Shown here: positions 346-49,483 of the stretch, one piece after another
Numbering within the stretch: the stretch's first letter is position 1
How the letters are laid out: each line of letters starts with the position of its first letter
The notes under the pieces: generated by a model
What the model was told of the DNA's origin: nothing
Database searches by the model: none
What the model saw: the letters and a program-made list of their open reading frames with translations, nothing else
Assembly: GCA_964459315.1 (NCBI GenBank)
Contig: CAYWMH010000001.1
Coordinates: 1-49,483 of the forward strand
Direction of reading: 5' to 3'
DNA: 49,483 bases
Source of the DNA: an uncultured Verrucomicrobiota bacterium
GTDB lineage: Bacteria; Verrucomicrobiota; Verrucomicrobiia; Limisphaerales; UBA1096
Made by a program: the position numbers and the translations under genes

Positions 346-3249
346 CTAGTCGATGTAAACGAACTCGTTAGCGTTAAGCAGGACTCGGCATAAGCCGTTG
401 AGGGCAGCGTCCGCGTCGGCCGCCTGTCCCAGCAGACGGCCGAAATACCGGGACTCCTCTGAAGTTGGCGGACGGCCAAGTACCAGCCGACAGGACAGGC
501 GCACTTTTTCCTGCACGCTCCCCCCGGCCTCGCGCTGGATGCGCCTTGCCAGGGCGGCGGCTTCCTCGTTCACGAAATCGCCGTTGAACAGCGACAACGC
601 CTGCAGCGGCGTGACGGAGGTGCGGCGGCGAGGCCGCGACTCGGCGCACACCGTCGAGTCGAACGCCTGCATGAACGGCATGTTCAGCGTGCGCTGCTGG
701 TAGATGTAAATACTGCGCTTGCGGCCGGCTTGGTCGAGCTGCGTGTCCCACTTGTTCTCGGAGTACTTCACCGTCTCGGCGATGTCGCCCGGCAGCGGCG
801 GGAAAATCGGCAGGCCATACAGCTCCGGGTTCAACCGGCCACTCACCGCGAGCACACTGTCGCGGATCGCCTCGGCGTCGAGCCGCCGCCGCTCGTAGCG
901 CCACCACAGGTGGTTCAACGGATCGATAGCTGCAGCCGCCTCGTTTTTCTCCATCGACGACTGGCGATAGGTGCTGGAGGTGACAAGCATGCGGTGCATT
1001 GATTTCAGGCTCCAGCCGCTGTCGACGAAGCGCGAGGCCAGCCAGTCGAGCAATTCCGGGTGCGTCGCGCCACCGCTGAGTTTCCCAAAGTCGCTCGGCG
1101 TCCGGACGATGCCGCGGCCAAAGTGCCGGTACCACAAGCGGTTCATCATCACGCGCGCCGTGAGCGGGTTGTCCCGGCTGGCGATCCACTGTGCCAATGC
1201 CATGCGACGGCTGCGCGTGGGCCAACGCTTGAACGGATCGAGCCGAATGGGAGCCGGATTCGAGTGGCCGGCGATGATGCCCGGGAACCCGGCCTTCACC
1301 ACCGGGCCGTGGTTGTCGTACTCGCCGCGCAGCTTGACGGTGGTAACCGGCACACCCGGCTCGTACGGAGGCCCGAACGAATGCCGCAGCGACATGGCAA
1401 CCGGCTTGAGCCGCTTGATGTGCTGCTTGACGAAGCGCTCCCGGTTCTCCAGCCGATAAAAGAGATCCCGCTCGTTCTTAGTGAACAAATCGTTGGAGTA
1501 GTCGTAGATTTGGTCACGCAGTTTGGTTCCCTTGGCCGCGGCCGGATTGATGAACGTCCCGAGCATCGCGCCGGCACCGCCGACCTCGAATCCGTATCCC
1601 TCGCCGGTGTGGTCGGCGGAAAACACAACCACGACCGTGCCGGCTTGGTCGTCGAGGAACTCGGCCAGGTCGCCACGGGCGAGGTCTCCCCGCAGAAAAC
1701 TTTTGTCGAAATACAATGCCGGCGCTTGGCCAAGCCGCGCGAGCCGGGGCTGCCGACTGACCTCCGCTTGGCCAAGCGCGGTCTTCGTGACCTTGTCCAC
1801 CCAGACGCCGATGCGGTCGCCGTCGCCCGGGTTAGGAGTCTCAGCGTTGGCGTCCAGGTCGGCGGCGTCGAGCCAAAACCGCAGCCCGTCTGTGGGTAAC
1901 TCGGGCACCGCCCCTTCGCCGTAATACTTGGCCTTCACATAACGGTCCAGCGCGCCAAGTTCGCTGCCGTTCAGCGGACGGCCGTAAATCATTACCTCCG
2001 CGAACGCTCCCTTGTGGCCGGCGTTTTTGGGCTGGCCGGTGCCCTCGGTATAGTCGCCGAGGCTGACGTACTCCGGCTTGGGAAGATCGCCGTACCATTT
2101 GCCGTTGTTCGCGCCGCTCTTGCTGCCCAGCGAACCGGCCGGTTTCCCGTCGGTGAAAAACGACCAAACCCTGCCATCGGTCGACGCGACGGCGTAATGC
2201 GGCTGGCCGTCGGTCACGTTCGCGGTGTCGTAAAGATAGTCGTTGCCCAGGCCGCCGCCGTAAACCTGCAGGCCGAACCCGGCATCGCGCCTGGCGATGC
2301 GCGGCTCCAGTTGCCTCGTCAACTCGGTCAGTTTCGACTTGGCCTCGCCGGCCTCACGCTGCAGTCGGGCACGCTTGTCGTTGATCAACGCTTCCTCATG
2401 GGCGCGATAAAACCGCGCTGACAACGGTCCGCCGATCTGGAAGCCGTCGCCACGCTCGGGCGGCGGGAGCTGCACCGTCGAGAAGAACGCCTGCATGCGG
2501 TAGAAGTCCGCGATCGGGATGGCGTCATGCTTGGTGTCGTGGCAGTGCGCGCAGCCCATCGTAAGCCCGAGAAACACGGAACTGACCGTCGAGGTCATCT
2601 CGCTGAGCAGCTCGTGCCGGGAACGGTCGCCGCGCGGCTCGGTGAACGGCGCAAGCCGCAGAAACGTAAGCGCGACCGTGCGTTCGGCGTCCATCCCCGG
2701 CAGTTCGCCCGCGCCCATGATCTCGTTGAACTCGTCGCCGGCGATCTGCTCGCGGATGAACAGGTCGTACGGCTTGTCGCGGTTGAGCGAGTCGATGACG
2801 TAGTCGCGGTAGCGCCAAGCGTGCGGCATGTCGGGGTCGCCCTCGTAGCCCGCGGTGTCTGCGTACCGCGCCAGGGCGAGCCAGTGGCGTGCCCACCGTT
2901 CACCGTAGCGCGGAGCGTTGAGCTGCCGGTCGACGAGCCGTTCGTAGGCAAGCGGGCTGCGGTCGTTGACGAAGGCGTCGGCGACCTCCGGCTCCGGCGG
3001 CACCCCGAGCAGGCCGAAGTACAGCCGGCGCACCAGCGTGCGACGCTTGGCCAAGGGTGCCGGCTCGATGCCGCTGGCCTCCAGCCGGGAGAGGATGAAC
3101 GCGTCAACCGGGTTGCTGACCCAGTTGGTGTTCGTCACTGCGGGGGGGGCGCCCGGGGCAACGGGTGTGAATGGCCAACGCTTGGCGTGATCCGCGAGGC
3201 CAAGCACACCCAACAACAGCGTGGCGGCGATGGTTGAAGCAAATCGCAT
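346..3249 (-). CDS. PSCyt2 (DUF1549) / DUF1553 domain protein with a central lectin-like (LamG-like) insert
   Basis: ORF 346..3381 is trimmed to ATG 3249. That start gives a signal-like MRFASTIAATLLLGVLGLA and avoids overlap with the divergent neighbour. DUF1549-type motifs: NPVDAFILSRLE, RYGERWARHWLALARYADTAGYEGD, GCAHCHDTKHD. DUF1553-type motif: NPLTARVMMNRLWYRHFGRGIVRTPSDFG. The LamG-like call for the middle part is tentative. Confidence 0.9.
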   Translation of the reverse strand: MRFASTIAATLLLGVLGLADHAKRWPFTPVAPGAPPAVTNTNWVSNPVDAFILSRLEASGIEPAPLAKRRTLVRRLYFGLLGVPPEPEVADAFVNDRSPLAYERLVDRQLNAPRYGERWARHWLALARYADTAGYEGDPDMPHAWRYRDYVIDSLNRDKPYDLFIREQIAGDEFNEIMGAGELPGMDAERTVALTFLRLAPFTEPRGDRSRHELLSEMTSTVSSVFLGLTMGCAHCHDTKHDAIPIADFYRMQAFFSTVQLPPPERGDGFQIGGPLSARFYRAHEEALINDKRARLQREAGEAKSKLTELTRQLEPRIARRDAGFGLQVYGGGLGNDYLYDTANVTDGQPHYAVASTDGRVWSFFTDGKPAGSLGSKSGANNGKWYGDLPKPEYVSLGDYTEGTGQPKNAGHKGAFAEVMIYGRPLNGSELGALDRYVKAKYYGEGAVPELPTDGLRFWLDAADLDANAETPNPGDGDRIGVWVDKVTKTALGQAEVSRQPRLARLGQAPALYFDKSFLRGDLARGDLAEFLDDQAGTVVVVFSADHTGEGYGFEVGGAGAMLGTFINPAAAKGTKLRDQIYDYSNDLFTKNERDLFYRLENRERFVKQHIKRLKPVAMSLRHSFGPPYEPGVPVTTVKLRGEYDNHGPVVKAGFPGIIAGHSNPAPIRLDPFKRWPTRSRRMALAQWIASRDNPLTARVMMNRLWYRHFGRGIVRTPSDFGKLSGGATHPELLDWLASRFVDSGWSLKSMHRMLVTSSTYRQSSMEKNEAAAAIDPLNHLWWRYERRRLDAEAIRDSVLAVSGRLNPELYGLPIFPPLPGDIAETVKYSENKWDTQLDQAGRKRSIYIYQQRTLNMPFMQAFDSTVCAESRPRRRTSVTPLQALSLFNGDFVNEEAAALARRIQREAGGSVQEKVRLSCRLVLGRPPTSEESRYFGRLLGQAADADAALNGLCRVLLNANEFVYID

Positions 3250-3350
3250 CGTCGTTTCTGCTTTGACAGAAGCTAGACGCGCCCGGACAGAATTGCAATC
3301 GTACAGTTGAAGCATTGAAAACCGCACGGAATCGCGTACGTTCCCGGCAC

Positions 3351-6300
3351 ATGACAAGGCCGTCCACAAACCGGAACCCATGCGCCTCGCGCCTTTTTGT
3401 GCGCGCGGTGCTATGGCTGCTGGCTCTGTTTTTTGCCGCCCCGCTTGGGCAAGCGGTGACGCTGGTTGATTACGGTTCGGACTGGAAACTGTGGCGCGGC
3501 CGCAAGACCCCCAGCCGCCCCGACTACTGGGCCTGGACCAAGGCGGCCCATGACGATTCCGACTGGGAGACCGCGCAGACGCCGGTGTTCTTCGGCGAGA
3601 AAGTCACCGGCGGCACCGAGTTGGAGGACATGAAAAGCCGCTACAACTCGTTTTTTCTGCGGCGAAAATTCCACGCCCCCAACCCGGGGACGGTCACCTC
3701 GATGACCCTCCGGGCCAAGGTGGACGACGGGTTCGTCGCCTACATCAACGGCACCGAGGTGGCGCGGCACAATGTCGAAACCGCAAAACCCAAGTACAGC
3801 TCGGCTGCCTCCAAGGCGGCGTCGGAGCCGTTGCGCTTCCGCAACCACGCGCTGAAGAGCCCAGGGGAGTTTCTTGTCGGGGGCGAAAACACGATTGCCG
3901 TGATTGTGCTCAACCAGCGGCGCACCAGCCCAGACGCATTGTTCGACGCACGCCTCTCCGCGGTATCGGTCGAGAGCGTCCCGCCCAAGGTGGAATCGGT
4001 CGATCCACCAGCCGGACTAGCCTCGAACCTGAGCCGCGTCCTCGTCACCTTCACGGAGCCAGTCACCGGCTTGGACGCCGCCGACCTGCTGGCGAACGGC
4101 GTGCCGGCCCAATCGGTCGAGGGCGGCGGCCGGACCTGGCTGTTTCAACTCGGCAGCCTGCCCCAGGGCAAGGTGCGCCTCCACTGGGCCAACGGCCACG
4201 GGATTGTTGACCAGGCGCAGACCCCCAACGGGTTCCGCGCCACCGCCACGGGCAACCGCTGGAGCTACACCCACGCCGACGACAATCCGCCATACGTCAA
4301 GCGCACCAACCCACCGGCAGGACTCGCGGTGAAGTCGCTCGACGCGATTGAGGTGGAGTTCAGCATGAACGTCAGTGGCGTGGATGCCAACGACCTCCGG
4401 ATCAACGGTCAGCCGGCCCAGAGCGTGACAAGGATCAGTAACAGTCGCTACTCGTTTGCACTTGGCCAAAAGCCCAGTCCCGAGGTGAAAATCTCCTGGA
4501 ACCCGGACGCCGGCATCACCGGCACGAACCCGTTCAAGAAAGCCTTCCTGCCACTTGGCTGGTTTTACCGCGTAGACCCCAACGCGCCGCCGCCGCCGCG
4601 CATCGTGATCTCCGAGATCATGTACCACCCGATCGAGGAGCCGGAATTTGACAAGCGCGGCAAACCAGTGCTCGACCTGTCGGAGGATGTGCATGAGTTC
4701 ATCGAGTTGCACAATTTTAGCCGCGAGACGGTCGCACTGGACAACTGGCGGATCAGCGGCGGCATCGACTACGCCTTCCCAGCGGGAACCAAGGTCGAGA
4801 GCGGCGGATACCTGGTTGTGGCAAAAAGCCCCGGGCGTCTTGCTGCCATCAAGGAATACCGCCTGACCGGCATTAAGGTTCTGGGTCCTTACGAGGGCGT
4901 GCTCAGCAACAACGGCGAGCGCATAAACGTAGAAAACGACGGCGGTAACGCCGAGGACAGCGTTCGTTACTCGGCTCAATTCCCCTGGCCTATGGGCGCG
5001 GACTCGATCGGTGCAGGGCCGAAGTGGACCGGAATCGACCCGATGCAGTACCAGTACCGCGGCAGGTCGCTGGAACGAATCAATTTCTCATTGCCGGGGA
5101 GCGATCCAGCCAACTGGGTCGCCTCGACCCTCGAGAAAAACGCCACGCCCGGTCGGCCGAACCACATCGCGCGCATGCGCTCCATGCCGTCGCCCATCGT
5201 CACCTCCATCCGCGCAGTCGACCACACCGGGGACACCCTGATCAGCAAAGTGGACACCGCCACCATCGAGGCCAAGTTCTCCACCAACGAGACGCTTGCC
5301 GGCGTCACGCTTGAGTATTTTTACGACAATCTCGAAAAGGAGGGGGAGACCTTGGCCAAGCGGGACATGAAACTGAAGGACGGCGCCTGGACGCACACGC
5401 TGCCGAAGAAACCGGACCGGACGCTGGTGCGCTATCGCATTCTGGCCGACCTTGGCCAAGGGCTGAAACAGGTTTCTCCGCGCAAGAGCGATCCATACCA
5501 GTGGCACGCCTACTTCGTGATGCCAAAGTTCAGCGACACACGAAAATACTTCGAGCTGCTGGTATCTCGAAAAGGTATCAGCCAACTGTCCAAAAACGCG
5601 GCGGCCAACCCGCGCAGCGGCTATCGCCCTGCAAAAAACATCAGGCCGCGCGGTCCGTGGAACGACACCGTGCACGGCATCCTCGTTTACAACGGCGAGG
5701 TGCGCGACGTGTACGCTCGTTGGAACGGCAGCTTCTTCCGCCGGAACGCCGGCCGCAACTCATGGAAGGTGCGCCTGCCCCGCTACAACCAGTTCGACGG
5801 CCAGAGCGACCTGCTGTTCATGGACAAGGACAACGTTACTGTGGCTGGACATACGCTGTACCGCGAGCTTGGCCTGCCGACCTCGCACACCGAGTGGGTC
5901 GATGTCGCCATCAACAAGCGCAAGATGCGGCGCCTGATGGTGGAGGATCACAACGATCGTTTGCTCGAAAGATACCATGAGGACCAGGCCCGCCGGAACC
6001 CCGGCACCGAGGTCGAGCCCAACGGCCACATCTTCAAGTCGAGTGGGATCCTGCAAAACCTCGGCCCGTACGGCCGGGGCGACGGCAGCAAGCTAGGCAC
6101 CAACGACGGCTGGACCGCGCTGAAGCGGTACGAGTGGATTTACTCCTCCAAGAACCAGGACTGGAAGGGGCACACCGAGCTGAAGGAAATGATCGATGGC
6201 CTCGCCAAGAACCGGAGCAACCGCACCCGACTCAAACAATGGTTCGAGGCAAACTGGGACATGGAGTCGCTCATGAGCTACATCGCGGTGCGCAACTGGA

Positions 6301-8729
6301 TGGGCACGTGGGATGATACGGTCCACAACTTCTATATTTGGCGCCGAGCCGATGGCCGCTGGGCGCTGTTACCGTGGGACTTCGACAACGACATGCGGAA
6401 CGACTACATCAGCCGGTCCATCTTTATCGGCGAGGCCGGAAACCCCAACACCACCCACGGCACGCACCCCATCAAGGACGCGTTTTTCAAGGCGTTCCGT
6501 ACCGAGTACAAGGAGCATCTTTACTACCTGAACAACACGCTGCTCACGCCGGAGAATCTCCGCCGCATGGGCCTGATCAGCTACACCTCGTTTGCACGCG
6601 GCCGCCAGTCCAACGTCAACAAGCAGTGCGGCAAGGTGAAAATCCCGAGCCAGCCATCGGCCCTGCAGATGACCGGCGGCGGCTCCGTCTACGCCCCAGC
6701 GTCAATGGTGGTGTCGGCGTTCAAGAGCACCGAGAAGGCGACCACCCACGCCGAGACGATCTGGGAAATCCGCACCGCCGACGGCTCGTTCACCTATCCC
6801 GTTTTCAAGGCGAGGACGGCGGAACAGTTGACCGAGATGCCGGTGCCGTTTGAACTGCTCGAGTTCGGGCGCACCTACTTTTGGCGGGCCACCTACATCG
6901 ACTCCGCCGGCCGCAAATCGCTGCCCAACACCGAGGCCGGCTTCCGCTACGGCGGCCACGCCCGGTCGGAGGATCTCGTTTCCCTCACCGACACGGAATG
7001 GAAATACAACGCCGACGGCAAAAACCTCGGCACGACCTGGCGCAAGGCCGAGTACGACGACTCCGCTTGGCCAAGCGGTAAGTCGTACCTGGGCCGCGCC
7101 ACCTCACGCCAAAAATACAAGATGGCCACCACTCTCAAGATGGGGGCGACCACGTTTTATTTCCGTAAAAAGTTCACCTTCGAGCCGCCTCCCGGCGGCG
7201 GTGAGCTGCAGATCCGCTACCTCGTCGATGACGGCGCGGTGTTTTACCTCAACGGCAAGCAGATCCACCGCGTGAACATGAAGGAGCGCGGCAGTATCCG
7301 CTACACCACGCGGGCGTTGAGTGCCGTAACCGACGCGGAGTTGAGCGGGCGCATCACGCTCCCCGGCAATTCGCTGAAGCAAGGCGAAAACATCATTGCG
7401 GTAGAGGTGCACCAATACTCGACCAACGACCGGGACCTCGCCTTCGGCATGAGCCTGAGCGCCACCGTCGAGAGCCTGCCTGACGGCGTCATCCTCAACG
7501 AGTTGATGGCCGCCAACCGCGGCTCGGTACCGCACGCCGGCACCAACCCCGACTGGATCGAGTTGCACAATCCGACCAACCGCGACATCGACCTCGATGG
7601 CGCCGGCCTTGGCGACGGGGTCACCCTCGAGCCGTCGTTCTTTTTCCCTGCACAGACCATCCTGCCGGCTAAGGGGCACCTCGTCGTCTGGTGCGATGAC
7701 CAACAGGAGGCGCCCGGGCTGCACACCGGCTTCGCGCTCGATGCCGACGGTCAAAACATCGCGCTGTGGTGGCCAAGCGATGAGGGGCTGGTCATCCAGG
7801 ACGCCGTTGGCTTCGGCCCGCAGGCCGCCGACCTCTCCATCGGCCGCGAACCGGATGGCCTGGGCCCATGGACACTCACCACCCCCACCCCCGGCTTGGC
7901 CAACGACGCGCCAAGCCTCGGCAGCGTCAAGTTGATCGTCATCAACGAATGGATGGCCCGGCCGGAGAACGGCAGCGACTGGCTAGAGCTGTTCAACAAG
8001 TCGACCCTCCCGGTCCCGCTCGCCGGGTTGAAGCTGAGCGACGACCCGTCCCAACCGGACAAGACCGTCCTGCCGCCGCTCTCGTTCATCGGCCCCGGCG
8101 GCTTTCTGCGTCTGGCCGCCGACAACGCCCCCGCCGACGGGCCGACCCACCTTGGCTTCCGCCTGAGCGGCAGCGGCGAGGAGAGCGTCCTGACCGACGC
8201 CAAAGACAAGGAGATCGACTCGGTGCTTTTCGGCGAGCAGACCCGCGGTGCCTCCGAGGGACGCTACCCCGACGGTGCCAAGTCGATCGTCTTTTTCCCG
8301 AATAGCCCCACGCCGGGCCGGGCCAATCTGATCCTCGGCGACGCCGACAAGGACGGCCTGCCCAACCTTTGGGAGGCCCAGTACGGCCTCAACCCCAACG
8401 ACCCGGCCGATGCCGGGCTGGACCCGGATCGCGACGGCCACACCAACGTTGAGGAATACCTCGCCGGCACCCGGCCCGACGACGACACCAGCGTACTGGC
8501 ACTAGCCATGACGCTGCATGAACAAACCGTGACCGTCTCGTTCGAGGCGCAGGCCGGTCGCGCTTACGTACTGTGGAGCACCGCCGACCTCGGAGGCGGC
8601 GACTGGATCAAGGTGCAGATGTTCTCGGCCGGGGAATCCAAGCGCACGATCACCTACGGGATTCCCGCCGAGCACCGGCCGCTGCCCGGCGGCTACTACC
8701 GGCTCACGATCCCGGCGGCGATCGACTGA
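3351..8729 (+). CDS. Giant secreted CotH-family (kinase-like) protein with three lamin-tail domains, Ig-like and galactose-binding-like modules, and C-terminal TSP3-type Ca-binding repeats
   Basis: The track ORF starts at TTG 3315. I prefer ATG 3351, which gives MTRPSTN... followed by the hydrophobic LWLLALFFAAPLG. LTD motifs: ISEIMYHP...HEFIELHNFS, VILNELMAAN...DWIELHNPTN, IVINEWMARP..DWLELFNKS. CotH core: NSWKVRLPRYNQFDGQSDLLFMDKD...WDFDNDM. Two Ig-like repeats (PPKVESVDPPAGL... and PPYVKRTNPPAGL...). Two similar beta-sandwich modules ending DDGFVAYINGTEV and DDGAVFYLNGKQI. TSP3-like DADKDGLPNLWE..DPDRDGHTNVEEY. Confidence 0.85.
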   Translation: MTRPSTNRNPCASRLFVRAVLWLLALFFAAPLGQAVTLVDYGSDWKLWRGRKTPSRPDYWAWTKAAHDDSDWETAQTPVFFGEKVTGGTELEDMKSRYNSFFLRRKFHAPNPGTVTSMTLRAKVDDGFVAYINGTEVARHNVETAKPKYSSAASKAASEPLRFRNHALKSPGEFLVGGENTIAVIVLNQRRTSPDALFDARLSAVSVESVPPKVESVDPPAGLASNLSRVLVTFTEPVTGLDAADLLANGVPAQSVEGGGRTWLFQLGSLPQGKVRLHWANGHGIVDQAQTPNGFRATATGNRWSYTHADDNPPYVKRTNPPAGLAVKSLDAIEVEFSMNVSGVDANDLRINGQPAQSVTRISNSRYSFALGQKPSPEVKISWNPDAGITGTNPFKKAFLPLGWFYRVDPNAPPPPRIVISEIMYHPIEEPEFDKRGKPVLDLSEDVHEFIELHNFSRETVALDNWRISGGIDYAFPAGTKVESGGYLVVAKSPGRLAAIKEYRLTGIKVLGPYEGVLSNNGERINVENDGGNAEDSVRYSAQFPWPMGADSIGAGPKWTGIDPMQYQYRGRSLERINFSLPGSDPANWVASTLEKNATPGRPNHIARMRSMPSPIVTSIRAVDHTGDTLISKVDTATIEAKFSTNETLAGVTLEYFYDNLEKEGETLAKRDMKLKDGAWTHTLPKKPDRTLVRYRILADLGQGLKQVSPRKSDPYQWHAYFVMPKFSDTRKYFELLVSRKGISQLSKNAAANPRSGYRPAKNIRPRGPWNDTVHGILVYNGEVRDVYARWNGSFFRRNAGRNSWKVRLPRYNQFDGQSDLLFMDKDNVTVAGHTLYRELGLPTSHTEWVDVAINKRKMRRLMVEDHNDRLLERYHEDQARRNPGTEVEPNGHIFKSSGILQNLGPYGRGDGSKLGTNDGWTALKRYEWIYSSKNQDWKGHTELKEMIDGLAKNRSNRTRLKQWFEANWDMESLMSYIAVRNWMGTWDDTVHNFYIWRRADGRWALLPWDFDNDMRNDYISRSIFIGEAGNPNTTHGTHPIKDAFFKAFRTEYKEHLYYLNNTLLTPENLRRMGLISYTSFARGRQSNVNKQCGKVKIPSQPSALQMTGGGSVYAPASMVVSAFKSTEKATTHAETIWEIRTADGSFTYPVFKARTAEQLTEMPVPFELLEFGRTYFWRATYIDSAGRKSLPNTEAGFRYGGHARSEDLVSLTDTEWKYNADGKNLGTTWRKAEYDDSAWPSGKSYLGRATSRQKYKMATTLKMGATTFYFRKKFTFEPPPGGGELQIRYLVDDGAVFYLNGKQIHRVNMKERGSIRYTTRALSAVTDAELSGRITLPGNSLKQGENIIAVEVHQYSTNDRDLAFGMSLSATVESLPDGVILNELMAANRGSVPHAGTNPDWIELHNPTNRDIDLDGAGLGDGVTLEPSFFFPAQTILPAKGHLVVWCDDQQEAPGLHTGFALDADGQNIALWWPSDEGLVIQDAVGFGPQAADLSIGREPDGLGPWTLTTPTPGLANDAPSLGSVKLIVINEWMARPENGSDWLELFNKSTLPVPLAGLKLSDDPSQPDKTVLPPLSFIGPGGFLRLAADNAPADGPTHLGFRLSGSGEESVLTDAKDKEIDSVLFGEQTRGASEGRYPDGAKSIVFFPNSPTPGRANLILGDADKDGLPNLWEAQYGLNPNDPADAGLDPDRDGHTNVEEYLAGTRPDDDTSVLALAMTLHEQTVTVSFEAQAGRAYVLWSTADLGGGDWIKVQMFSAGESKRTITYGIPAEHRPLPGGYYRLTIPAAID

Positions 8730-12650: not shown

Positions 12651-12663
12651 TCCTGCCACCTCT

Positions 12664-13524: not shown

Positions 13525-13591
13525 GCCGCCGACAGGATAAAAGAGATGACAAAATCATCAAGCCATATACCGCCCCCGCTTGGCCAAGCGC

Positions 13592-14473: not shown

Positions 14474-14540
14474 CGATTGCAGAAAAAGTAGAGCCAAAAA
14501 AACCGGCTCCGCTCAAAAATCAATGGAAGTCCCTGTTTAT

Positions 14541-19011: not shown

Positions 19012-19059
19012 GGTGGAAGGTTGAAGGAAGAAGGCCGAAAACCAAGCGCTTGGCCAAGC

Positions 19060-37041: not shown

Positions 37042-37045
<4 letters not shown>
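36098..37045 (-). CDS. DUF58 protein (vWA-like, MoxR partner)
   Basis: EFTEYRQYSPGDDVRFLDWKVMARTDREFIKKFEDET is the classic DUF58 motif. A GTG start overlaps the MoxR stop (GTGA). Confidence 0.85.
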
Positions 37046-38046
<1,001 letters not shown>

Positions 38047-38048
38047 AT

Positions 38049-41467: not shown

Positions 41468-41678
41468 ACCGTCCAACCGCACATTAAGTTACTGTCGCTC
41501 TCGAAAAAACGAGTCATCGGTTGCGGACACCGTCCGATTGTGGCCCTGTTTCTACAAGACAAATCGCCAGCCAGGCGGTGCGTCGCGGCCAGGCGTTGGC
41601 ACGGTTTCCCGTGAAAAGCCGTGCCAGCGGGTGCCAACCGGGGTTTCCTCCAAAAAAACTTGCCTCAACGGCGGCCCA

Positions 41679-42641: not shown

Positions 42642-42887
42642 ATGCTTATCAACGTAACATTCTGGTCGTACTTCCGGGATCACGCCGGTTGCTCGGAAAC
42701 GGTAGTCGAACTCGAAACCGGAGCCACCTTGGCCAAGTTACACGAGCTCGTTTGCCAGCAATTCCCCTCGGTGGCGGATGCCCGCTACAGCACGCTCAAG
42801 GCCGTCGGGCTGGAATACGAGAGTGACGATTTCGTCCTGAGCGACAGGGATGAGGTGTCTTTTTTCCCGCCGGTACAGGGCGGCTAA
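42642..42887 (+). CDS. moaD: MoaD/ThiS-family sulfur carrier (molybdopterin synthase small subunit)
   Basis: 81 aa from ATG 42642, with a C-terminal ..PPVQGG. It sits directly upstream of moaE. The GTG at 42627 would overlap hpt. Confidence 0.75.
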   Translation: MLINVTFWSYFRDHAGCSETVVELETGATLAKLHELVCQQFPSVADARYSTLKAVGLEYESDDFVLSDRDEVSFFPPVQGG

Positions 42888-42890
42888 GCG

Positions 42891-43283
42891 ATGAATACAG
42901 AGCTGACCATTACGACCGACCCGATCGACGAGCCGGCCTTGGCCAAGCGCCGCGCGATGAGCCACGGCATGGGGGCAGTCGTTCGTTTTCTCGGCGTGGT
43001 GCGGGGGAGCGAGGGCGACAAGACGATCACCGCGATCGAGTACGAGGCGTTCGAGCCGATGGCGCGTCACCAGTTCGGGTTGTTGTTCGACGCGCTTGGC
43101 CAACGATGGCCGGTGGAGTCGGTGCGCTTGGTCCACCGGGTCGGCGTCGTGCCGGTGAATGAGCCATCTCTCTGGGTGGAAGTGGTCGCACCGCACCGCG
43201 CGGAGGCGTTCGACGCCTGCCAATTCCTCATCGATGGCATGAAGCAAAAAGTCCCGATCTGGAAAAAACCGCTCCCGGTTTAG
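42891..43283 (+). CDS. moaE: Molybdopterin synthase catalytic subunit
   Basis: GAVVRFLGVVRG, ITAIEYEAFEPMA and KQKVPIWKKP. Confidence 0.9.
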   Translation: MNTELTITTDPIDEPALAKRRAMSHGMGAVVRFLGVVRGSEGDKTITAIEYEAFEPMARHQFGLLFDALGQRWPVESVRLVHRVGVVPVNEPSLWVEVVAPHRAEAFDACQFLIDGMKQKVPIWKKPLPV

Positions 43284-44614
43284 CCAAGCGACTCGCGGGC
43301 GTAGGCGAGGGCCTGTTCGCGGTTGGTGAGTTCGCCGGCGAGTTGGCGGTGGCGGATGTCATCGAGCAACTTCCCCAAGTCCGGCCCCGGCGCTTGGCCA
43401 AGCGCGATCAGGGCGGCGCCGTCGACGAGCGGTTGCTGCATTTCCGGCTGGTTTTGAAACTCGGCAAACTTATCCCGCAGGAACTCGTAGTTCTCCAGTT
43501 GGCCGCTTGAGGCGAGGCTGTCAAGCCGGTGCAGTGCCAACTCTTCCGGGAAGGTCGCGCGGAGGAACAGCTTGCGCAAAGTGGCCGGCCGCATCTTTTG
43601 CGCCTCCTTCAATTGCATATGGTGGCGCACGCAGGTTTTCACCGCAGCGCTGTCGACCTTTGGAAAGCGGAGGCGGTTCATGATTTCGAGCGTCATCTCC
43701 GCGCCAACGGTTTCGTGGCCCAGAAACCGGATGCGCCCGTCGTCGTGGGTCTGCGTCACCGGCTTGGCGACGTCGTGCAGCAGGACCGCCCAGGTCAGCG
43801 TCATGTCGGCGCCGGCCGGCAGGTGGCTGAGCATGAGGCGAATGTGGGTGAACACGTCGCCCTCGGGATGGTGCTCGGGCGGCTGTTCGCAGCCGAGGGT
43901 GGCGGCCAATTCCGGCAGCAACTCCGGCAGCAACCGGCTGTCGTTCAGTAGGTCGAGTCCGCGCGCGGCGTGCGGCGGCTGGAACAGTTTTAGCAGCTCC
44001 TCGCGGATGCGCTCGGCGCTCACCTCACGGATCGCGGTGGCATGCTCCCGCACGGCGGCGAATGTCTCCGGCTCGACGTCGAAGCCGAGCTGAGCTGCGA
44101 ATCGCACGGCGCGCAGCAGGCGCAGCCGATCCTCTCCGAAGCGCTGCGACGGGTCACCGATCGTGCGGATGCGCCGGGCCTCGAGGTCGGCCTGACCACC
44201 AACCCAGTCGTGCAGTTCGCCGGCGAGCGGATCGTAAAACAGGCCGTTGAGGGTGAAGTCGCGCCGCTCGGCATCCTCGCGCGCATCGGTGAAACGCACG
44301 CGGTCGGGCCGCCGACCATCGGCGTACCCGCCCTCGGCCCGGAAGGTGGCCATCTGGTACTCGTGCCCGCCGTCGAGCACGATGATCACGCCAAACTGTT
44401 TGCCCACCGGGATGGTCTTGGGGAACAACGACTCGATCTCGTCCGGCTTGGCGTCGGTGGCGATATCGTAGTCAACCGGCGCTTGGCCAAGCTGGGCGTC
44501 GCGCACGCAGCCGCCGACCCAAAACGCCTGGAACCCGGCCCCGGCTAGGCGCTTGGCCAAGCGAAGCGCGCCGGCCTTGAGGCTGTCGATTGGCGTGCTG
44601 GCGGTGTTGGGCAT
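43280..44614 (-). CDS. cca: CCA-adding tRNA nucleotidyltransferase with HD domain
   Basis: ATG 44614. FWVGGCVRDAQLG, DYDIATDA and HD motif LLHDVAKP. Its stop overlaps the moaE stop convergently (TTAG at 43280..43283). Confidence 0.85.
   Translation of the reverse strand: MPNTASTPIDSLKAGALRLAKRLAGAGFQAFWVGGCVRDAQLGQAPVDYDIATDAKPDEIESLFPKTIPVGKQFGVIIVLDGGHEYQMATFRAEGGYADGRRPDRVRFTDAREDAERRDFTLNGLFYDPLAGELHDWVGGQADLEARRIRTIGDPSQRFGEDRLRLLRAVRFAAQLGFDVEPETFAAVREHATAIREVSAERIREELLKLFQPPHAARGLDLLNDSRLLPELLPELAATLGCEQPPEHHPEGDVFTHIRLMLSHLPAGADMTLTWAVLLHDVAKPVTQTHDDGRIRFLGHETVGAEMTLEIMNRLRFPKVDSAAVKTCVRHHMQLKEAQKMRPATLRKLFLRATFPEELALHRLDSLASSGQLENYEFLRDKFAEFQNQPEMQQPLVDGAALIALGQAPGPDLGKLLDDIRHRQLAGELTNREQALAYARESLG
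43390..43405. repeat. Perfect 16-bp copy of GCGCTTGGCCAAGCGC
   Basis: Read directly. It lies inside the cca CDS (..LIALGQAPGP..). Confidence 0.95.
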
Positions 44615-44786
44615 GGCGGGGCGGCTCGGGCCGTTGAGCCGGTTTTCCCTCGAAAACCAGCCGTAATCAAGCCGCGGAACGCACCCGCGGCAGAGTCGGC
44701 GGCTTGTTTGGCTAATTGCCTTTTCGGAGTTTGGGGCCTCGACTACCCTCCCGCGCGTGCTGGAACAGCGCAAGACAGGCGAAAAA

Positions 44787-46535
44787 ATGCTGCGCGGCAT
44801 CCCCGCATCGCAGGGGGTGAGCCGCAGCCGTGTGGTGGTGCTTGACCGCACGCGGATCAACCCGGCCAAGTGGGGCATCGTCGAGGCTGACCGGGCCAAG
44901 GAGGAGGAGCGGCTCAAGGCATCGCTGGCGGATACACGGAGCCAGATCGTTGCCATGCAGGACCGACTGCGCGAGGCGATGGGCGCCAAGGAGGCGTTGA
45001 TCTTCGACTCGCACCTGCTCGTGCTGGAAGACCCGATGCTGCTCGAGGAAGTGTCGCGCTTCATCCGTGAGGATTTGGTCTCGGCCGAGTACGCCTTTTA
45101 CTCGGCGTCGGAAAAATATGCCAACGCCCTGGCCAACGTGGAGGACGCCTACCTGAGCGAGCGCGCCGCCGACCTCCGCGACGTGACGCAGCGCGTGCTG
45201 GCCAACCTCATGGGCCGGCCGACCTGCGCCGGGCTCGCCGACCTGGCCGAGCCGTGTATCGTGGTGGCCCACGACCTGACGCCCTCCGACACGGCGATGA
45301 TGGACTCGGCAAAGGTACTGGGATTCGTCACCGAGGTCGGCAGCCGCACATCGCACACCGCCATCCTAGCGCGGTCGCTGCGCATCCCAGCGGTGCTCGG
45401 GCTGGGCGGAACGATCGGTGAACTGAAGAGCGGCCAATCGGTGCTGATCGACGGCTTCAACGGCTTTGTCGTCATCGAGCCCTCAGACCAGACGCTCTTT
45501 GAATACGGCCAACTGGTCGATCGACAAGCCTCGATCGAAGAGAGCCTCGAGGTCATCCACGACGACGCGGCGGAAACGAAGGACGGCCACCGGATCATTC
45601 TCACCGCCAACATCGAGTTGGCGACCGACGTCGAGGGTGTCCTGCAAAGCGGCGCGACCGGCGTCGGCCTGTTCCGAACGGAGTTCCTGTTCATCAACCG
45701 CAGCGACCTGCCGGACGAGAAGGAACAGTTCGCCGCCTACCGCCGGGTGGCTGAGTCGCTTGCGCCGGACCCGGTGATCATCCGCACGCTCGACCTCGGC
45801 GGCGACAAACTGCTCTCCCACGTTAACTTGGCCGAGGAGATGAACCCGTTCCTCGGCTGGCGCGCCATCCGGCTCTGCCTCGAGGAAAAGGACCTGTTCC
45901 GTACGCAGCTCCGCGCCATCCTGCGAGCCAGCGTCTATGGCGACCTGAAAATCATGTACCCGATGGTCTCCGGCGTGGAGGAACTCGAAGCCGCCAATGT
46001 GCTGCTCGACGAATGCCGGGCCCAACTCCGCGCCGAAGGCACGGCCTTTGCCGACGCCATCGAGATCGGGGTGATGATCGAGACGCCGTCCGCGGCGATG
46101 ATCGCCGACAGCCTGGCCAAGCGCGTGCAGTTTTTCAGCATCGGCACCAACGACCTCATCCAGTACACGCTGGCCGTCGACCGGTTGAACGAAAAGATCG
46201 CCCACCTTTACGAGCCGACGCATCCCGGCATCCTGCGCCTGATCAAGGCCACGGTGGACGCCGGCCAGGCGCACGGCATCTGGACTGGCGTTTGTGGCGA
46301 GATGGCCAGCGACCTGGCCGTCGTGCCGCTGCTGCTCGGGCTGGGCGTGGCCGAGTTGAGCGTCACGCCGTCGATGGTCCCGCGTGTCAAGATGCTCATC
46401 CGCAGCATCGAGATGGCGCTGGCGCAGGAGCTGGCGGCGTTTGCGCTCGACAGCGATTCGCCGAAGGAAATCCTCACCCGTGCCGAGGCTTTGGCCAAGT
46501 CGGCCGTGCCGGATTTTTTCGAGGGCTCGGTGTAA
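44787..46535 (+). CDS. ptsI: Phosphoenolpyruvate-protein phosphotransferase (PTS enzyme I)
   Basis: I prefer ATG 44787 (MLRGIPASQG) to GTG 44757. Phospho-His motif GSRTSHTAILARSLRIPAV; FFSIGTNDLIQYTLAVDR. Confidence 0.95.
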   Translation: MLRGIPASQGVSRSRVVVLDRTRINPAKWGIVEADRAKEEERLKASLADTRSQIVAMQDRLREAMGAKEALIFDSHLLVLEDPMLLEEVSRFIREDLVSAEYAFYSASEKYANALANVEDAYLSERAADLRDVTQRVLANLMGRPTCAGLADLAEPCIVVAHDLTPSDTAMMDSAKVLGFVTEVGSRTSHTAILARSLRIPAVLGLGGTIGELKSGQSVLIDGFNGFVVIEPSDQTLFEYGQLVDRQASIEESLEVIHDDAAETKDGHRIILTANIELATDVEGVLQSGATGVGLFRTEFLFINRSDLPDEKEQFAAYRRVAESLAPDPVIIRTLDLGGDKLLSHVNLAEEMNPFLGWRAIRLCLEEKDLFRTQLRAILRASVYGDLKIMYPMVSGVEELEAANVLLDECRAQLRAEGTAFADAIEIGVMIETPSAAMIADSLAKRVQFFSIGTNDLIQYTLAVDRLNEKIAHLYEPTHPGILRLIKATVDAGQAHGIWTGVCGEMASDLAVVPLLLGLGVAELSVTPSMVPRVKMLIRSIEMALAQELAAFALDSDSPKEILTRAEALAKSAVPDFFEGSV

Positions 46536-46548: not shown

Positions 46549-46564
46549 GCGCTTGGCCAAGCGC
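46549..46564. repeat. Perfect 16-bp copy of GCGCTTGGCCAAGCGC in a 30-nt convergent intergenic gap
   Basis: Read directly. It lies 13 nt after the ptsI stop and 1 nt before the stop codon (46566..46568) of the minus-strand gene. Confidence 0.95.
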
Positions 46565-46565: not shown

Positions 46566-49483
46566 TTACGGCTGCCAAGCCTTGAATTCCGGCAGGCGGC
46601 GCACGTCAGTGAAGCGCGGGTCGTTCATCACCCGCTTGTGAATATTGTCCGCCGCCGCGTTGGTGGCCCGGCGCTGTTTGTCGAGCGCAAGCGCCTTGGC
46701 CAGGGTGGCCCACGAATCCGCCGTTCGGTTCCGCTGCGCCGCCTGTACCGCCGCCAGGTCGTACCAGCCCTCGGGGCTGTCCGGCATCTTGCGCGTCAGC
46801 GCCACCAGTGCCGACTCCAGTTGTTCCTGTTTGCCGAGGTGGTTGAAGAACTGGGCGGCCATCAGCAGGTTGGTCGTGTTGATTGATGGCTGCTCCACGG
46901 CGTTTGCCATCACGTCAGTCCCCTTTTGCGCTTGGCCAAGCTGCACATGCGTGGTCGCCAGGTCCAGCGCAAGCTCGAAGTTGGCCGGCTCGGCGGCCAA
47001 CCGCGCCTCGAGCTGCCGGAGCGCATCGCGTGCGATCTTGTCTTGCTGCTCGGCCTTGGTTCCCTGGCCGAGGTTTTGATAGACCGACGCAATGGTGAAT
47101 CGGGTACTGATCTCGAGGCCGGGCTGCTGCACCAGCGCGTCGATTAACTTGAGTGCCTGGTCGTTCTGCTTCAGGCGCAGGTAGATCGTGGCCAACTCGA
47201 GCGTCACCCTGGGGTCGTCGGGATTGGCCGCGTGCCGTTGTTGCAGCCCGACGAGTTGCTGCTGGATCTGCTGGATCTCCGGTTCGCTCAGGCCCAGCCC
47301 CTTTTCGGTGGCCGCCGGCTTGCCATCGAGCGCGTCGTTGAATTGAAAAATGCTCCGTTTCAGGTGAAGAAGCAAAGGGCTATCGGGGTCGAACTGCTCG
47401 TAGGTCGCAATGAGTTGGATGGCGTCGTCGCGCCGGGCCGTCGCCGTCGCCTTGTCGCCCGCCCTGAATTCATCATACCCCAGAGAGAGCAGCAACTGGG
47501 TGAAGTGCGACAGTACTTCCGGACTGTAAGGGCAGAACGCCCAAGCCTGTTTGAGGGCAAATATGAATTCGCGCGTCATCCGGTCCTGCTTTTGTTTCAT
47601 TTCGTCGCGCTTGGCCGCGTCGGACTCCTGCGAGATGGCCAGCTTGTAGTTGTTGATGCGCCAGCGATAGATATCAGCGATTGAGGTGCGCAACTTGCTG
47701 AACGCCTTCTGCGCTGCCTCGTCCCGCACGAACGCCGGGTCGCCAGTGTAGCCGTCGAGGTCCCACCGCCTGTAAGTCTTGATGGCCCAGTCGCCGATGT
47801 CCTTGATAGATGTGTCATCGGTAATCCAGTTGCCGGTAAGTCTTTCCTGGTAATTCGCCCAGAATAGGCGATCCTTTCGCATCATCTCGTCCGTGATTTC
47901 CGGAACCTCATCGCGATTAAGCTTCAGAATTATCCCATAAGGTGTGAGGTGCGGATACATCCACTCCAACGGAAAGCTCACCTCAATGAAAAAGTCACGT
48001 TCCGGATTTTTGTCGAACAAAAGCTTGGCCAGCTTGGAGTTGATCTGCATGACCGAAACCTGCCCGGCCACGGAGACACGATCGCCAATGCGGTTGACGA
48101 TCTCGCCCGGCTTCAGCGCGCCCGCTTTCTCGCGAGCATCTGCCTCTTGTAAATATTCCGCAAAAGCCATCTCCGCCTCGAGTTGCGACGGTGAGTTTAG
48201 TTCGAGATCGGGATATAACCCCGCTTGGCCCGGCGCAACAAAGTCGGCCAGCAACTCGTCAATCAACCGCCGGTTCAACCGCACTCGAGCCTGTCTCCAG
48301 CGGATGTAGCGGCCGTTCTCCTCGATTCGCCTTGGCTGCGCCTGACCAAGCGCTGTAACTTGCTCACTTAACGCTAGTGTTGTATTCGAAAACTCGGCCC
48401 CAGCAAACGCGGCTTCATCCCAAATCGGGTCACCATCAACGATTGCATTGAATTCGCTCGCCAGAATTTCGCGGAGTGTGTCGTCGGAAGGCGGGTTGGC
48501 GCAGGCCTCCCTGCCGTTGTCAGAAAGCTTCCCAAGAATGAACCGTGCTAAATCATCCTCTTGCACAATGCGCTTGGCCAAAGCGCTTGGTTTCACAATT
48601 TGTTCCGGCTCAAAATAGGAACCGCTCGTGCGACGTTCCACCTCCCAGTTCGCTCCCATGCCAATCATCCACTTGTCAATGGATCCGGAAAGACCAAATA
48701 GGAAGTTGGTGCCCAAAGCACCCGATGCAAACGGGAGATAAGTTGGATCGGCTAGGTTCCAGTCGATCTGTTGACTGCGCTGATAGTGGGCGCGAACGGT
48801 ATCGAGATAAGTGCTGTCAGCGAGCGCATTTTGGGTAATCAACGCAACATCGCGGCGGTCGAATTCTGGATCACGTCGCTTGGCTGGGTCGGTGAAACTC
48901 TCGGCAAAGATCATGTAGGTCGGGTTGAATCGGCCGGGATCGGTGCCGCCAAACAGGATGGCGTTCTCCGACATCTCCGGATAAATCGGGCTACCATCCG
49001 CCTCCGTGTACGGCGGTGTGAACATATCGTGCCCGTACCAGAATCCAAACAGATGCCCGCGCTGCTCATTCTTCCCCCAGTGCGACAAAACCGACCACGC
49101 TGGAAGCATTGCCAGTACCGCCAAAACAATCATCGGCGATAACGATTGACCTTGGCTTCTCCCTTGTTGATCGCGATGCACTAGAAACAGTGCCGTCAGG
49201 AACACCACTAAACAAAATGCAAAACCACGCGTCCAGTGATTCAAGAAAAACTGTGTCTCGGCCAATTCAGTGGACCAAGCAACCATCGCAAAGGCAGCGG
49301 CCACGACAAGCCCGATACCAAGCCATATCCGTGTTTCAATATACCGCCGCACCACTAGCGCACAAAAAAGCGTCAATCCAAAACCGATCCACATTGCGAG
49401 CAGCACGTGTGACGCCGCAAAAAACACCCGCGTCATGTCGCGCCCGTGCTTGTCCGGTGTCGGGTTGAGCAGGATCATCAGCA
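46566..49483 (-). CDS. DUF2723-like polytopic membrane protein (glycosyltransferase-like) with C-terminal TPR repeats; N-terminus probably beyond the window edge
   Basis: Several TM helices, NAILFGGTDPGRFNPTYM (DUF2723-like) and TPR-like C-terminal helices. The frame stays open upstream of ATG 49478 to the window end. Confidence 0.65.
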   Translation of the reverse strand, partial: LMILLNPTPDKHGRDMTRVFFAASHVLLAMWIGFGLTLFCALVVRRYIETRIWLGIGLVVAAAFAMVAWSTELAETQFFLNHWTRGFAFCLVVFLTALFLVHRDQQGRSQGQSLSPMIVLAVLAMLPAWSVLSHWGKNEQRGHLFGFWYGHDMFTPPYTEADGSPIYPEMSENAILFGGTDPGRFNPTYMIFAESFTDPAKRRDPEFDRRDVALITQNALADSTYLDTVRAHYQRSQQIDWNLADPTYLPFASGALGTNFLFGLSGSIDKWMIGMGANWEVERRTSGSYFEPEQIVKPSALAKRIVQEDDLARFILGKLSDNGREACANPPSDDTLREILASEFNAIVDGDPIWDEAAFAGAEFSNTTLALSEQVTALGQAQPRRIEENGRYIRWRQARVRLNRRLIDELLADFVAPGQAGLYPDLELNSPSQLEAEMAFAEYLQEADAREKAGALKPGEIVNRIGDRVSVAGQVSVMQINSKLAKLLFDKNPERDFFIEVSFPLEWMYPHLTPYGIILKLNRDEVPEITDEMMRKDRLFWANYQERLTGNWITDDTSIKDIGDWAIKTYRRWDLDGYTGDPAFVRDEAAQKAFSKLRTSIADIYRWRINNYKLAISQESDAAKRDEMKQKQDRMTREFIFALKQAWAFCPYSPEVLSHFTQLLLSLGYDEFRAGDKATATARRDDAIQLIATYEQFDPDSPLLLHLKRSIFQFNDALDGKPAATEKGLGLSEPEIQQIQQQLVGLQQRHAANPDDPRVTLELATIYLRLKQNDQALKLIDALVQQPGLEISTRFTIASVYQNLGQGTKAEQQDKIARDALRQLEARLAAEPANFELALDLATTHVQLGQAQKGTDVMANAVEQPSINTTNLLMAAQFFNHLGKQEQLESALVALTRKMPDSPEGWYDLAAVQAAQRNRTADSWATLAKALALDKQRRATNAAADNIHKRVMNDPRFTDVRRLPEFKAWQP

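Follow-up and report, generated by a model that had tools for sequence, protein, structure and literature searches.

A highly iterated palindrome restricted to one clade of marine Verrucomicrobiota

The window studied here is the whole of a 49,483-bp stretch of DNA (61.6% G+C; positions 1 to 49,483 of contig CAYWMH010000001.1, assembly GCA_964459315.1) from an uncultured Verrucomicrobiota bacterium. It is an ordinary chromosomal stretch, whose genes encode, among others, PSCyt2/PSD1 and LTD-CotH proteins, a multihaem cytochrome, sulfatases, the products of a BatA-MoxR operon, dUTPase, ThiS, MoaE, the CCA-adding enzyme, and PtsI. The last of these places the source in the Pedosphaerales/Limisphaerales neighborhood of the Verrucomicrobiota, in agreement with a preliminary description made from the letters alone, which had assigned it to the Planctomycetes–Verrucomicrobia–Chlamydiae (PVC) bacteria. 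Scattered over the window are 45 exact copies of the palindromic octamer TTGGCCAA, 41 of them inside coding sequences (CDSs) and four between genes, and 16 of the 29 genes contain at least one. The word is a clade-specific highly iterated palindrome (HIP), an element of the same kind as HIP1 of cyanobacteria but in another phylum and with another sequence.

Shuffles of the window that preserve dinucleotide composition contain the octamer 1.09 times on average and at most four times, against the 45 copies found. The 12-mer GCTTGGCCAAGC is present 20 times and the 16-mer GCGCTTGGCCAAGCGC four times (starts 15868, 32187, 43390, and 46549), as the preliminary description had reported; the near-variants that it quoted, CTGGCCAAGCG at 27372, 34893, and 46113 (to which three on the opposite strand can be added) and CGCTTGGGCAAGCG at 3442, are also where it placed them. 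Its total of 45 octamers is correct and 43 of its starts are exact, the remaining two being off by one (40905 instead of 40904, and 43096 instead of 43097). The most frequent 8-mers of the window are TTGGCCAA and words overlapping it, and every other palindromic 8-mer lies far behind. A maximal-order Markov null is uninformative, giving observed/expected ratios of about 1 for each nested word because the sub-words themselves consist mainly of motif copies. The intragenic total of 41 given earlier is recovered once a gene call is corrected. The longest open reading frame (ORF) in its region, 42738–43247 (−), is spurious, and synteny in all relatives identifies the real genes as those for ThiS (42642–42887, +) and MoaE (42891–43283, +). 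Since the word is a palindrome, a call on the wrong strand swaps its Leu-Ala-Lys (LAK) and Leu-Gly-Gln (LGQ) readings. Copies are spread unevenly among the genes: the longest copy-free stretches are 22178–26928 (4.8 kb), spanning a sulfatase, a PQQ beta-propeller gene, and an FGGY kinase, and 35616–38927 (3.3 kb), spanning DUF58-MoxR-DUF4159 genes, where the proteins are well conserved.

The enrichment is not confined to the window but extends over the genome as a whole, and it is limited to a single clade of marine Verrucomicrobiota, among whose MAGs (metagenome-assembled genomes) are ARS81, NIOZ-UU28, CB6_Bottom.37, SZUA-1142, MED711, and ERR599097_bin.68. The species comparison was anchored on PtsI identity. 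PtsI-anchored contigs of relatives at 94%, 90%, and 85% identity contain 0.7–1.3 copies per kb, flanks with different genes included, and eight GTDB species representatives with PtsI identities of at least 76% contain 0.85–1.59 copies per kb; a ninth representative in this range is a 2-kb contig with one copy. The sister lineage Limisphaerales MED-G186 (41% G+C), at 72% PtsI identity, has 0.05 copies per kb, and 70 further Verrucomicrobiota loci at 60% or less have 0–0.16 per kb, amounting to 30 copies in 1.09 Mb, or about 0.03 per kb. A metagenome scan with the 16-mer returned at least 120 loci, 65 of which (539 kb of unrelated gene content) hold 0.4–1.9 further copies per kb. With homology to earlier loci masked, the nonredundant clade set measures 565 kb and holds 581 copies (1.03 per kb; 1029 per Mb). 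Among the compared loci, L054, L056, L066–L069, L074, and L111 bear GTDB titles of Klebsiella, Akkermansia muciniphila, Acidoferrum, or Bifidobacteriaceae; their PtsI proteins are 57–59% identical to that of the window and their contigs are G+C-rich, and they are probably mislabelled MAGs.

Word counts in the 565 kb of clade DNA and the 1.09 Mb of motif-free relatives reveal that the real unit is not the octamer but the perfect 10-bp palindrome CTTGGCCAAG. The 8-mer is 37-fold denser in the clade; the counts in clade and relatives are 450 and 1 for the 10-mer and 278 and 0 for the 12-mer, and over 8–10 bp the enrichment ranges from 37- to 580-fold. The 10-mer extends in a graded, palindromic manner to GCGCTTGGCCAAGCGC, in places to CCAAGCGCTTGGCCAAGCGCTTGG. 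In the window, a C precedes the octamer in 41 of the 45 copies and a G follows it in 37, information content fades at ±4, and the consensus reads sCGC-TTGGCCAA-GCGs. The specificity is sharp: the clade has 278 perfect 12-mers, and copies with one mismatch among the ten core positions of this word number only about 55. Variants at the outer positions reach 1.7–3.4 times the outgroup density, and those with a change in the central GGCC (TTGNCCAA) are not in excess, at 0.68–1.0 times. The words that deamination would produce, TTGGTCAA/TTGACCAA, show no depletion, with a clade/motif-free ratio of 0.99, and TGGCCA away from the motif and its one-off variants is at outgroup level. Some copies overlap in a 12-nt register (TTGGCCAAGCGC repeated), for example at 5200–5219 in L135, at 2406–2425 in L212, and at 19042–19059 in the window; 12 adjacent pairs have a spacing of 12, and among palindromic 8-mers the interleaved AAGCGCTT ranks second in over-representation.

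Within genes, the word is read as TTG-GCC-AAx (Leu-Ala-Lys/Asn) in 21 window copies, as CTT-GGC-CAA (Leu-Gly-Gln) in 17, and as TGG-CCA (Trp-Pro) in three, the first two frames being mirror images of one another on opposite strands; in the clade set the corresponding numbers are 259, 180, and 15, with 127 copies in noncoding DNA. The preliminary description had stressed that all three frames are used, which is true, but the use is very unequal. When synonymous codons were shuffled within genes, keeping all proteins intact, 4.75 ± 2.04 copies remained (maximum 12), and shuffling of codon order left 1.50 ± 1.23, compared to the 41 observed; the excess therefore acts on the DNA and not on protein or codon usage. 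The codons recruited by the word are minority codons in the window (CTT, 11% of Leu; TTG, 16% of Leu; CAA, 31% of Gln). Of the 226 LGQ in the clade, 173 are spelled CTTGGCCAA, and of the 340 LAK, 218 are spelled TTGGCCAAG; both spellings fall outside the top codon combinations in the outgroup. The peptides themselves are also 3- to 6-fold commoner in the clade than in motif-free relatives (LAK, 2.07 versus 0.72 per 1000 residues; LGQ, 1.37 versus 0.23), and LGQA is found 141 times versus once, a difference of about 250-fold per residue. The pressure acts on DNA, and the proteins have yielded to it. The DNA-level drive postulated earlier is thus borne out by the protein-preserving shuffles, the rare codons, the altered proteins, and the presence of the word in every frame, in genes of either strand, and in noncoding DNA.

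The history of individual copies was followed in pairwise alignments of a syntenic 13.7-kb region, using as a control all 8-mers, which are unmatched for local protein conservation. In L112, 10 of 12 copies are intact as opposed to 44% of all 8-mers (P = 0.006); in L039, 11 of 15 as opposed to 30% (P = 7e-4); and in L043, at 74% nucleotide identity, 7 of 13 as opposed to 12% (P = 3e-4). Such retention at the same position fits selection on the DNA word, and a continuing restoring drive would look similar. In species that lack a given copy, the orthologous coding sequence aligns without gaps and is usually one transition away from the word, although some gains comprise several substitutions within ten bases, as at 43096, where relatives have GTCGAAAAGC and the window has CTTGGCCAAC. 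Coding copies have therefore been made by point substitution rather than by insertion, and amino acids were replaced where needed. The outgroup L044, too divergent for nucleotide alignment, was compared by tblastn: only 4 of 17 motif tripeptides are the same in this motif-free species, and window LAK sites correspond to LDK, LNE, LTK, LSK, LVK, and LIK.

The coding copies of the left part of the window begin in the PSCyt2/PSD1 gene (346–3381, −), which has two LGQ copies 42 nt apart, spelled CTT-GGC-CAA (1726–1733 and 1768–1775), and a LAK copy spelled TTG-GCC-AAG (3047–3054). The LTD/CotH gene (3315–8729, +) contains LGQ at 4462–4469 and 5452–5459, LAK at 5352–5359, the rare TGG-CCA frame, read as AWPS, at 7067–7074, and TTG-GCC-AAC (LAN) at 7896–7903. 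Two close pairs lie in the multihaem cytochrome gene (8736–10727, +), namely LAK at 9087–9094 with LGQ 52 nt further on (9139–9146) and LAK at 10551–10558 with LAN 42 nt further on (10593–10600). The gene for a CitMHS transporter (11235–12659, −) has a TGG-CCA copy, read as GWPI, at 11783–11790 and LGQ at 12150–12157, and the gene at 15832–19011 (+) has LGQ at 15872–15879, within the full 16-mer 15868–15883, and at 18011–18018. A sulfatase gene (20335–22233, −) contributes LAK copies at 20687–20694 and 20741–20748, 54 nt apart, and a TGG-CCA copy (AWPS) at 22170–22177; the gene at 26940–28004 (−) reads LAK at 27757–27764 and 27880–27887. The three copies in the gene at 30316–34020 (−), at 30964–30971, 32191–32198 (within the full 16-mer 32187–32202), and 33883–33890, are all LGQ.

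For most genes further to the right, relatives inform on retention and replacement. In the BatA/VWA gene (34017–36101, −), LGQ at 34905–34912 corresponds to LSA in the outgroup, LGQ at 35577–35584 is retained in L028, L035, and L037, and LAK at 35608–35615, 31 nt away, corresponds to LDK. The TPR/peptidase gene (38891–41482, −) has five LAK copies: 38928–38935, retained in six of seven aligned species (outgroup LNE); 39195–39202 (SAK); 39555–39562 (LTK) and, 30 nt from it, 39585–39592; and 40905–40912. ThiS contains LAK at 42729–42736, a copy previously taken as intergenic, and MoaE contains LAK at 42939–42946, retained in eight of nine aligned species, and LGQ at 43096–43103, the recent multi-substitution gain mentioned above. 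In the gene for the CCA-adding enzyme (43280–44614, −), LGQ is encoded at 43394–43401, within the full 16-mer 43390–43405, and at 44483–44490, where the word is retained in all aligned species with readable sequence (outgroup LSL); LAK at 44553–44560, 70 nt from the latter, is LVK in the outgroup. PtsI (44757–46535, +) has LAK at 46491–46498, where distant relatives mostly have LAR. Finally, the TPR gene (46566–49478, −) reads LGQ at 46932–46939 and LAK at 48574–48581, the latter retained in seven of seven aligned species and corresponding to LIK in the outgroup.

All four noncoding copies of the window lie 2–5 nt past the stop codon of a minus-strand gene. The copy at 13580–13587, in the long form CGCTTGGCCAAGCG, is 4 nt past the stop of the gene at 13592–14497 (−); that at 19050–19057, in the form CCAAGCGCTTGGCCAAGC and between convergent genes, is 2 nt past the stop of a DUF5069 gene (19060 onward, −); that at 26929–26936 is 3 nt past the stop of the gene at 26940–28004 (−). 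The fourth, at 46553–46560, is a full 16-mer (46549–46564) between convergent genes, 5 nt past the stop of the TPR gene at 46566–49478 (−) and 17 nt past that of PtsI; the spacer is about 25 nt longer in species with this copy than in species without it, and noncoding copies may thus come with indels. In the same intergenic region, L028 (about 11780–11960) and the corresponding stretch of L038 have an insert of some 190 nt between PtsI and the TPR gene, aligned to window 46541/46542, that includes a motif copy of its own and an inverted repeat (CTCCCTCTCCC...GGGAGAGGGAG) and looks like a small mobile or hairpin element.

The same concentration at gene ends is found throughout the clade set, whose genes were called by a codon log-odds caller that reproduced the database gene calls of L035. 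Thirty-seven copies start 2–12 nt after the stop of one of 410 genes, where about 4.5 would be expected at average density. In loci picked independently of the motif, the first 20 nt past stops hold 11.9 copies per kb, genes 0.78, and other noncoding DNA 0.64 (Poisson P = 6e-7); in metagenome loci, a 3-fold excess after stops persists with every exact 16-mer, the selection pattern, removed. Across locus sets, the post-stop density exceeds that in genes 3- to 15-fold. These copies have the long form, with 7–8 of the 8 GCGC flank positions matched; some reach CCAAGCGCTTGGCCAAGCGCTTGG or overlap in the 12-nt register, and between convergent genes the long form can occupy the entire spacer. RNA folding yields 0 kcal/mol for the 10-mer, −6.9 for the 16-mer, and −15.3 for the 24-mer, so the short form found in genes cannot fold as RNA. 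No T-runs follow the gene-end copies, a terminator scan was at chance level, and an Rfam search matched no family. The long forms might also work as small bidirectional hairpins at the ends of genes, a role that we propose only tentatively.

Copies also tend to lie close together. Spacings of 40–100 nt are 2–3 times commoner than under a Poisson model, and those between 15 and 165 nt cluster at 21, 31, 42, 52, 63, 73, 84, 94, and 105 nt, as illustrated in the window by the pairs 1726/1768, 10551/10593, 20687/20741, 35577/35608, and 39555/39585. These spacings give one periodogram peak only, at 10.5 nt (R = 0.37, n = 149, Rayleigh p about 1e-9); for spacings of 15–65 nt, R rises to 0.64, and the phasing fades beyond about 200 nt. 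The phased pairs stem from different loci with different flanks. At 10.5 nt, R is 0.51 for pairs in the same gene and frame, 0.33 for pairs in the same gene with mixed frames, and 0.32 (p about 0.01) for pairs not within one gene. In motif-free relatives, a period of 10.6 nt is likewise seen for Leu-x-Lys/Gln tripeptides, though a weaker one (R = 0.17, n = 1488). We treat the phasing as real, on the basis of the Rayleigh statistics and this one protein-level control, with a possible contribution from protein helices.

The word has also reached what appears to be viral DNA. Two scans of viral contigs returned almost only single chance matches, with 0.046 further copies per kb over 1.05 Mb. Contig L296 (1–13670; IMGVR_UViG_3300032087_002358), however, which has genes for a large terminase, a DnaB-type helicase, a DnaD-type loader, an exonuclease, and RusA, contains 8 copies of TTGGCCAA in 13.7 kb where 0.29 would be expected. 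Its motif density is about half that of the host, and one copy lies 4 nt past a stop. The contig is probably a phage or prophage of the motif clade. Among the genes of the window, none encodes a methyltransferase, a Vsr endonuclease, a reader protein, or a competence factor. Regular-expression signatures for 5-methylcytosine (m5C) methylases, Vsr, and N6/N4-methylases likewise found none among 555 clade ORFs, a sample that represents a fraction of one genome's worth; the leads they gave, a sulfatase, a seryl-tRNA synthetase, and a polysaccharide exporter, were false.

We class the word as a HIP because every testable property of HIPs is found in it. Cyanobacterial HIP1 has the cognate orphan methyltransferases DmtA and DmtC, on internal sub-sites, and a distribution that is periodic at 10–90 kb. 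Like HIP1 and the alternative HIPs of cyanobacteria, the word has a palindromic octamer core at about one copy per kb in tens- to hundreds-fold excess; with them it further shares a location mostly inside unrelated genes in all frames, an extension beyond 8 bp, positional conservation above that of control words, and two central positions averse to mismatch. The parallel with HIP1 drawn in the preliminary description thus holds for density, palindromic extension, positional conservation, and central-mismatch intolerance alike. HIP1, GCGATCGC, has conserved sites that are 15- to 300-fold over-represented, and Xu et al. inferred selection on it by a positional-conservation test (PMC5861425); its density is 300–2700 per Mb (PMC4390886; PMC5861425), and Elhai found that deviation at positions 4 and 5 is avoided (PMC4390886). 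Alternative cyanobacterial HIPs are GGGATCCC and CAGGCCTG, the latter over-represented in Synechococcus PCC 6312 (PMC5861425); lineage-specific replacement of the word is a further likeness, and CAGGCCTG shares the GGCC center of the word described here.

The word is nevertheless not HIP1 proper, being TTGGCCAA/CTTGGCCAAG in Verrucomicrobiota whereas HIP1 is GCGATCGC in cyanobacteria. One-mismatch copies are common for HIP1 and rare here, and cognate methyltransferases are known for HIP1 whereas none was seen in the window and the 555 clade ORFs. Three of its properties go beyond the preliminary description, namely the 10-mer unit, the long forms behind stops, and the helical phasing of neighbors; to our knowledge, neither the post-stop concentration nor the 10.5-nt phasing has been reported for HIP1. 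A literature search of partial coverage contained no mention of the word as a repeat and no HIP outside cyanobacteria; within that coverage, the motif is not one already catalogued.

Other known systems resemble the word in part. The DNA uptake sequences (DUS) of Neisseria and the uptake signal sequences (USS) of Pasteurellaceae are also words of 9–12 bp at about one per kb, common to a family-level clade, and they are the only case of an enrichment this large with an experimentally established cause (PMC1939737). Like the word, they are tolerated in genes via suitable codons and peptides and are in excess in noncoding DNA. They differ in being non-palindromic, with only about 10% arranged as inverted pairs, where the word is a perfect palindrome. 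Their mismatched forms are over-represented in a graded way (PMC1939737); of the one-off variants of the word, the outer ones are at 2–3 times and the central ones at 1 times the outgroup density, the perfect form being far more numerous, a pattern that may differ from the graded one. Repetitive extragenic palindromic (REP) elements, which have RAYT transposases, are short high-copy palindromes just downstream of coding regions that sometimes provide or abut stops, a likeness limited to the long form; they are imperfect, 20–40 bp long, tagged with GTAG or CGTC, essentially extragenic, and spread by insertion (PMC3733652), in contrast to a substitution-made word of 8–12 bp that is 78–91% genic. 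In Dcm-type methylation with Vsr repair, too, a palindromic methylase-type site is raised by a DNA-level process. The resulting word bias is small, concerns a 5-bp site, and depletes the T:G product words, unlike the 37- to 580-fold excess over 8–10 bp with undepleted product words seen here. Chi sites are likewise over-represented octamers that mark a cell's own DNA for recombination enzymes. They are asymmetric and polar relative to replication, whereas a palindrome cannot be polar. The gene-end copies, finally, differ from intrinsic terminators in having no T-run and a terminator scan at chance.

The reading that we prefer, with a probability of about 0.55, combines the DNA-level properties described above with reading of the word on duplex DNA by a protein, whatever its specific use. 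A dimeric protein that recognizes the sequence, either a methyltransferase or a binding protein, probably reads the word on duplex DNA. The word would then mark the clade's own DNA, and this mark may serve in DNA uptake or in recombination, where methylation of its GGCC/TGGCCA center might play a part; uptake and recombination had also been raised in the preliminary description. We rank uptake or recombination first because of the analogy with DUS/USS, as in Neisseria and Haemophilus, and of recent work on HIP1 proposing such a role (10.1101/2024.09.10.611283; 10.64898/2026.06.24.733823); even as the single most likely use, it is a tentative assignment made by analogy. Several observations weigh against the preferred reading or its uptake variant. 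Known uptake sequences are non-palindromic and have a gradual mismatch spectrum (PMC1939737), where the spectrum here is sharp, and this weakens the case, as do the failure to find a reader protein, methyltransferase, Vsr, or competence gene in the window and the partial-genome sample of 555 ORFs and the use of a conservation control unmatched for local protein conservation. The motif-bearing, phage-like contig is also compatible with a process that acts on whatever DNA the cell contains. Part of the phasing may come from the alpha-helix periodicity of Leu-x-Lys/Gln in proteins, and helical phasing as such would be expected of a DNA-binding protein inside the cell more than of a receptor for uptake.

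Two alternatives without a role in uptake deserve the most weight, and we regard each as unlikely. In Elhai's model for HIP1, a ratchet of methylation-linked repair, an orphan methyltransferase (recognizing GGCC, TGGCCA, or YGGCCR) together with methyl-directed or very-short-patch repair converts near-matches to the word, which is itself unselected. The classic type II sites in the core and a palindromic form suited to a type II methylase speak for such a process, as do the central GGCC one-off variants, which are without excess as in HIP1 (PMC4390886), the presence of the word in a phage-like contig, which such a process would predict if it acted on all DNA in the cell, and TGGCCA, a candidate m5C motif described for a marine MAG; the metaepigenome study concerned, however, detected neither methylated motifs nor methylase genes in the five Verrucomicrobia MAGs that it covered (PMC8919816). 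We disfavor the model because the positional conservation above background argues for retention over replenishment, as Xu et al. argued for HIP1 (PMC5861425), because the specificity extends over 10–16 bp, and because TTGGTCAA/TTGACCAA are undepleted relative to motif-free relatives. The link to a solitary methyltransferase with very-short-patch repair, suggested in the preliminary description, finds no support: the 555 ORFs have no m5C-methylase or Vsr signature, the product-word ratio is 0.99, and the specificity goes far beyond a 4–6-bp methylase site. Moreover, the Dcm/Vsr-type bias in E. coli is modest next to the enrichment seen here. The other alternative, in which an abundant, clade-specific dimeric protein binds about once per kb, cooperatively and on one helix face, to organize the nucleoid, corresponds to the chromosome-structure role favored by Xu et al. 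for HIP1. It would account for the perfect palindrome and sharp specificity, the positional conservation, the short-range clustering, and the phasing up to about 150 nt, which includes pairs not within one gene. Yet it leaves the concentration 2–12 nt behind stops unexplained, and the phasing is partly confounded with alpha-helix periodicity; it also counts against this proposal that we know of no nucleoid protein that needs an exact 10-bp word at such density and forces amino-acid changes.

The remaining alternatives are much less probable than these two. An RNA-level element, in which the word is a terminator or stabilizing hairpin in transcripts and coding copies are by-products, would agree with the raised density within 20 nt after stops, the often exact filling of convergent spacers, and the folding of the long forms at −6.9 to −15.3 kcal/mol. 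With 78–91% of the copies inside genes, an 8- to 12-mer form without folding energy, and gene-end copies that lack T-runs, terminator signal, and any Rfam match, we think it very improbable as a general explanation and, at most, a secondary role of the long form. Hardly more can be said for a miniature mobile element of the REP/RAYT type or a miniature inverted-repeat transposable element (MITE) spread by insertion. Noncoding copies do resemble REPs as short palindromes just downstream of genes (PMC3733652), the spacer at 46553 is longer with the copy than without it, and the insert in L028/L038 has its own copy; but for the coding copies this reading is contradicted by the gap-free alignments to motif-free orthologues, which indicate substitution, and a GTAG or CGTC tag is absent, the unit measures 10–16 bp and not 20–40 bp, most copies are in-frame in genes, and no transposase is encoded nearby in the window. 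That the word is a by-product of protein or codon preferences for recurrent LAK/LGQ peptides could be argued from the unequal frame use and from the fact that both are individually plausible as helix-surface tripeptides. This is refuted by the codon, outgroup, and shuffle results: the protein-preserving shuffle retains 4.75 copies and not 41, rare codons occur specifically inside the word, the peptides themselves are raised over motif-free relatives (LGQA 141 versus 1), and noncoding DNA has copies as well. An assembly artefact is refuted with it, as the word is at conserved positions in independent NCBI, ENA, JGI, and Logan assemblies.

The function of HIP1 has been debated for three decades as methyl-directed repair, nucleoid structure, or DNA uptake, from one phylum and essentially one word. 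One may speculate, at odds well short of even, that the present word is the first HIP outside cyanobacteria and a more elaborate one, with a dedicated reader on phased CTTGGCCAAG, long-form marks at gene ends, a rewritten proteome, and spread to the phages of the clade. In that case, "genomic watermarks" would have evolved independently in two phyla, and the clade would offer an independent test of HIP-type words. The post-stop long forms and the 10.5-nt phasing are new properties that can be tested in HIP1, and the 250-fold rise of LGQA illustrates how far a DNA-level requirement can reach in reshaping proteins. In practice, the word offers a near-diagnostic k-mer with which to bin this marine clade and assign phages to it.

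The word switches on between 72% and 76% PtsI identity, which permits a clean phyletic comparison of the genes that appear with it. Within the clade, one lineage stands apart. L045, at 85% PtsI identity, retains the word at only 4 of 14 window sites, and at the positions orthologous to window 42939, 44541, and 46932, where relatives have the word, it has TTGACCAA/TTGGTCAA instead. These changes are C-to-T at the inner C of GGCC, and L045 may represent a lineage in which the word is decaying.

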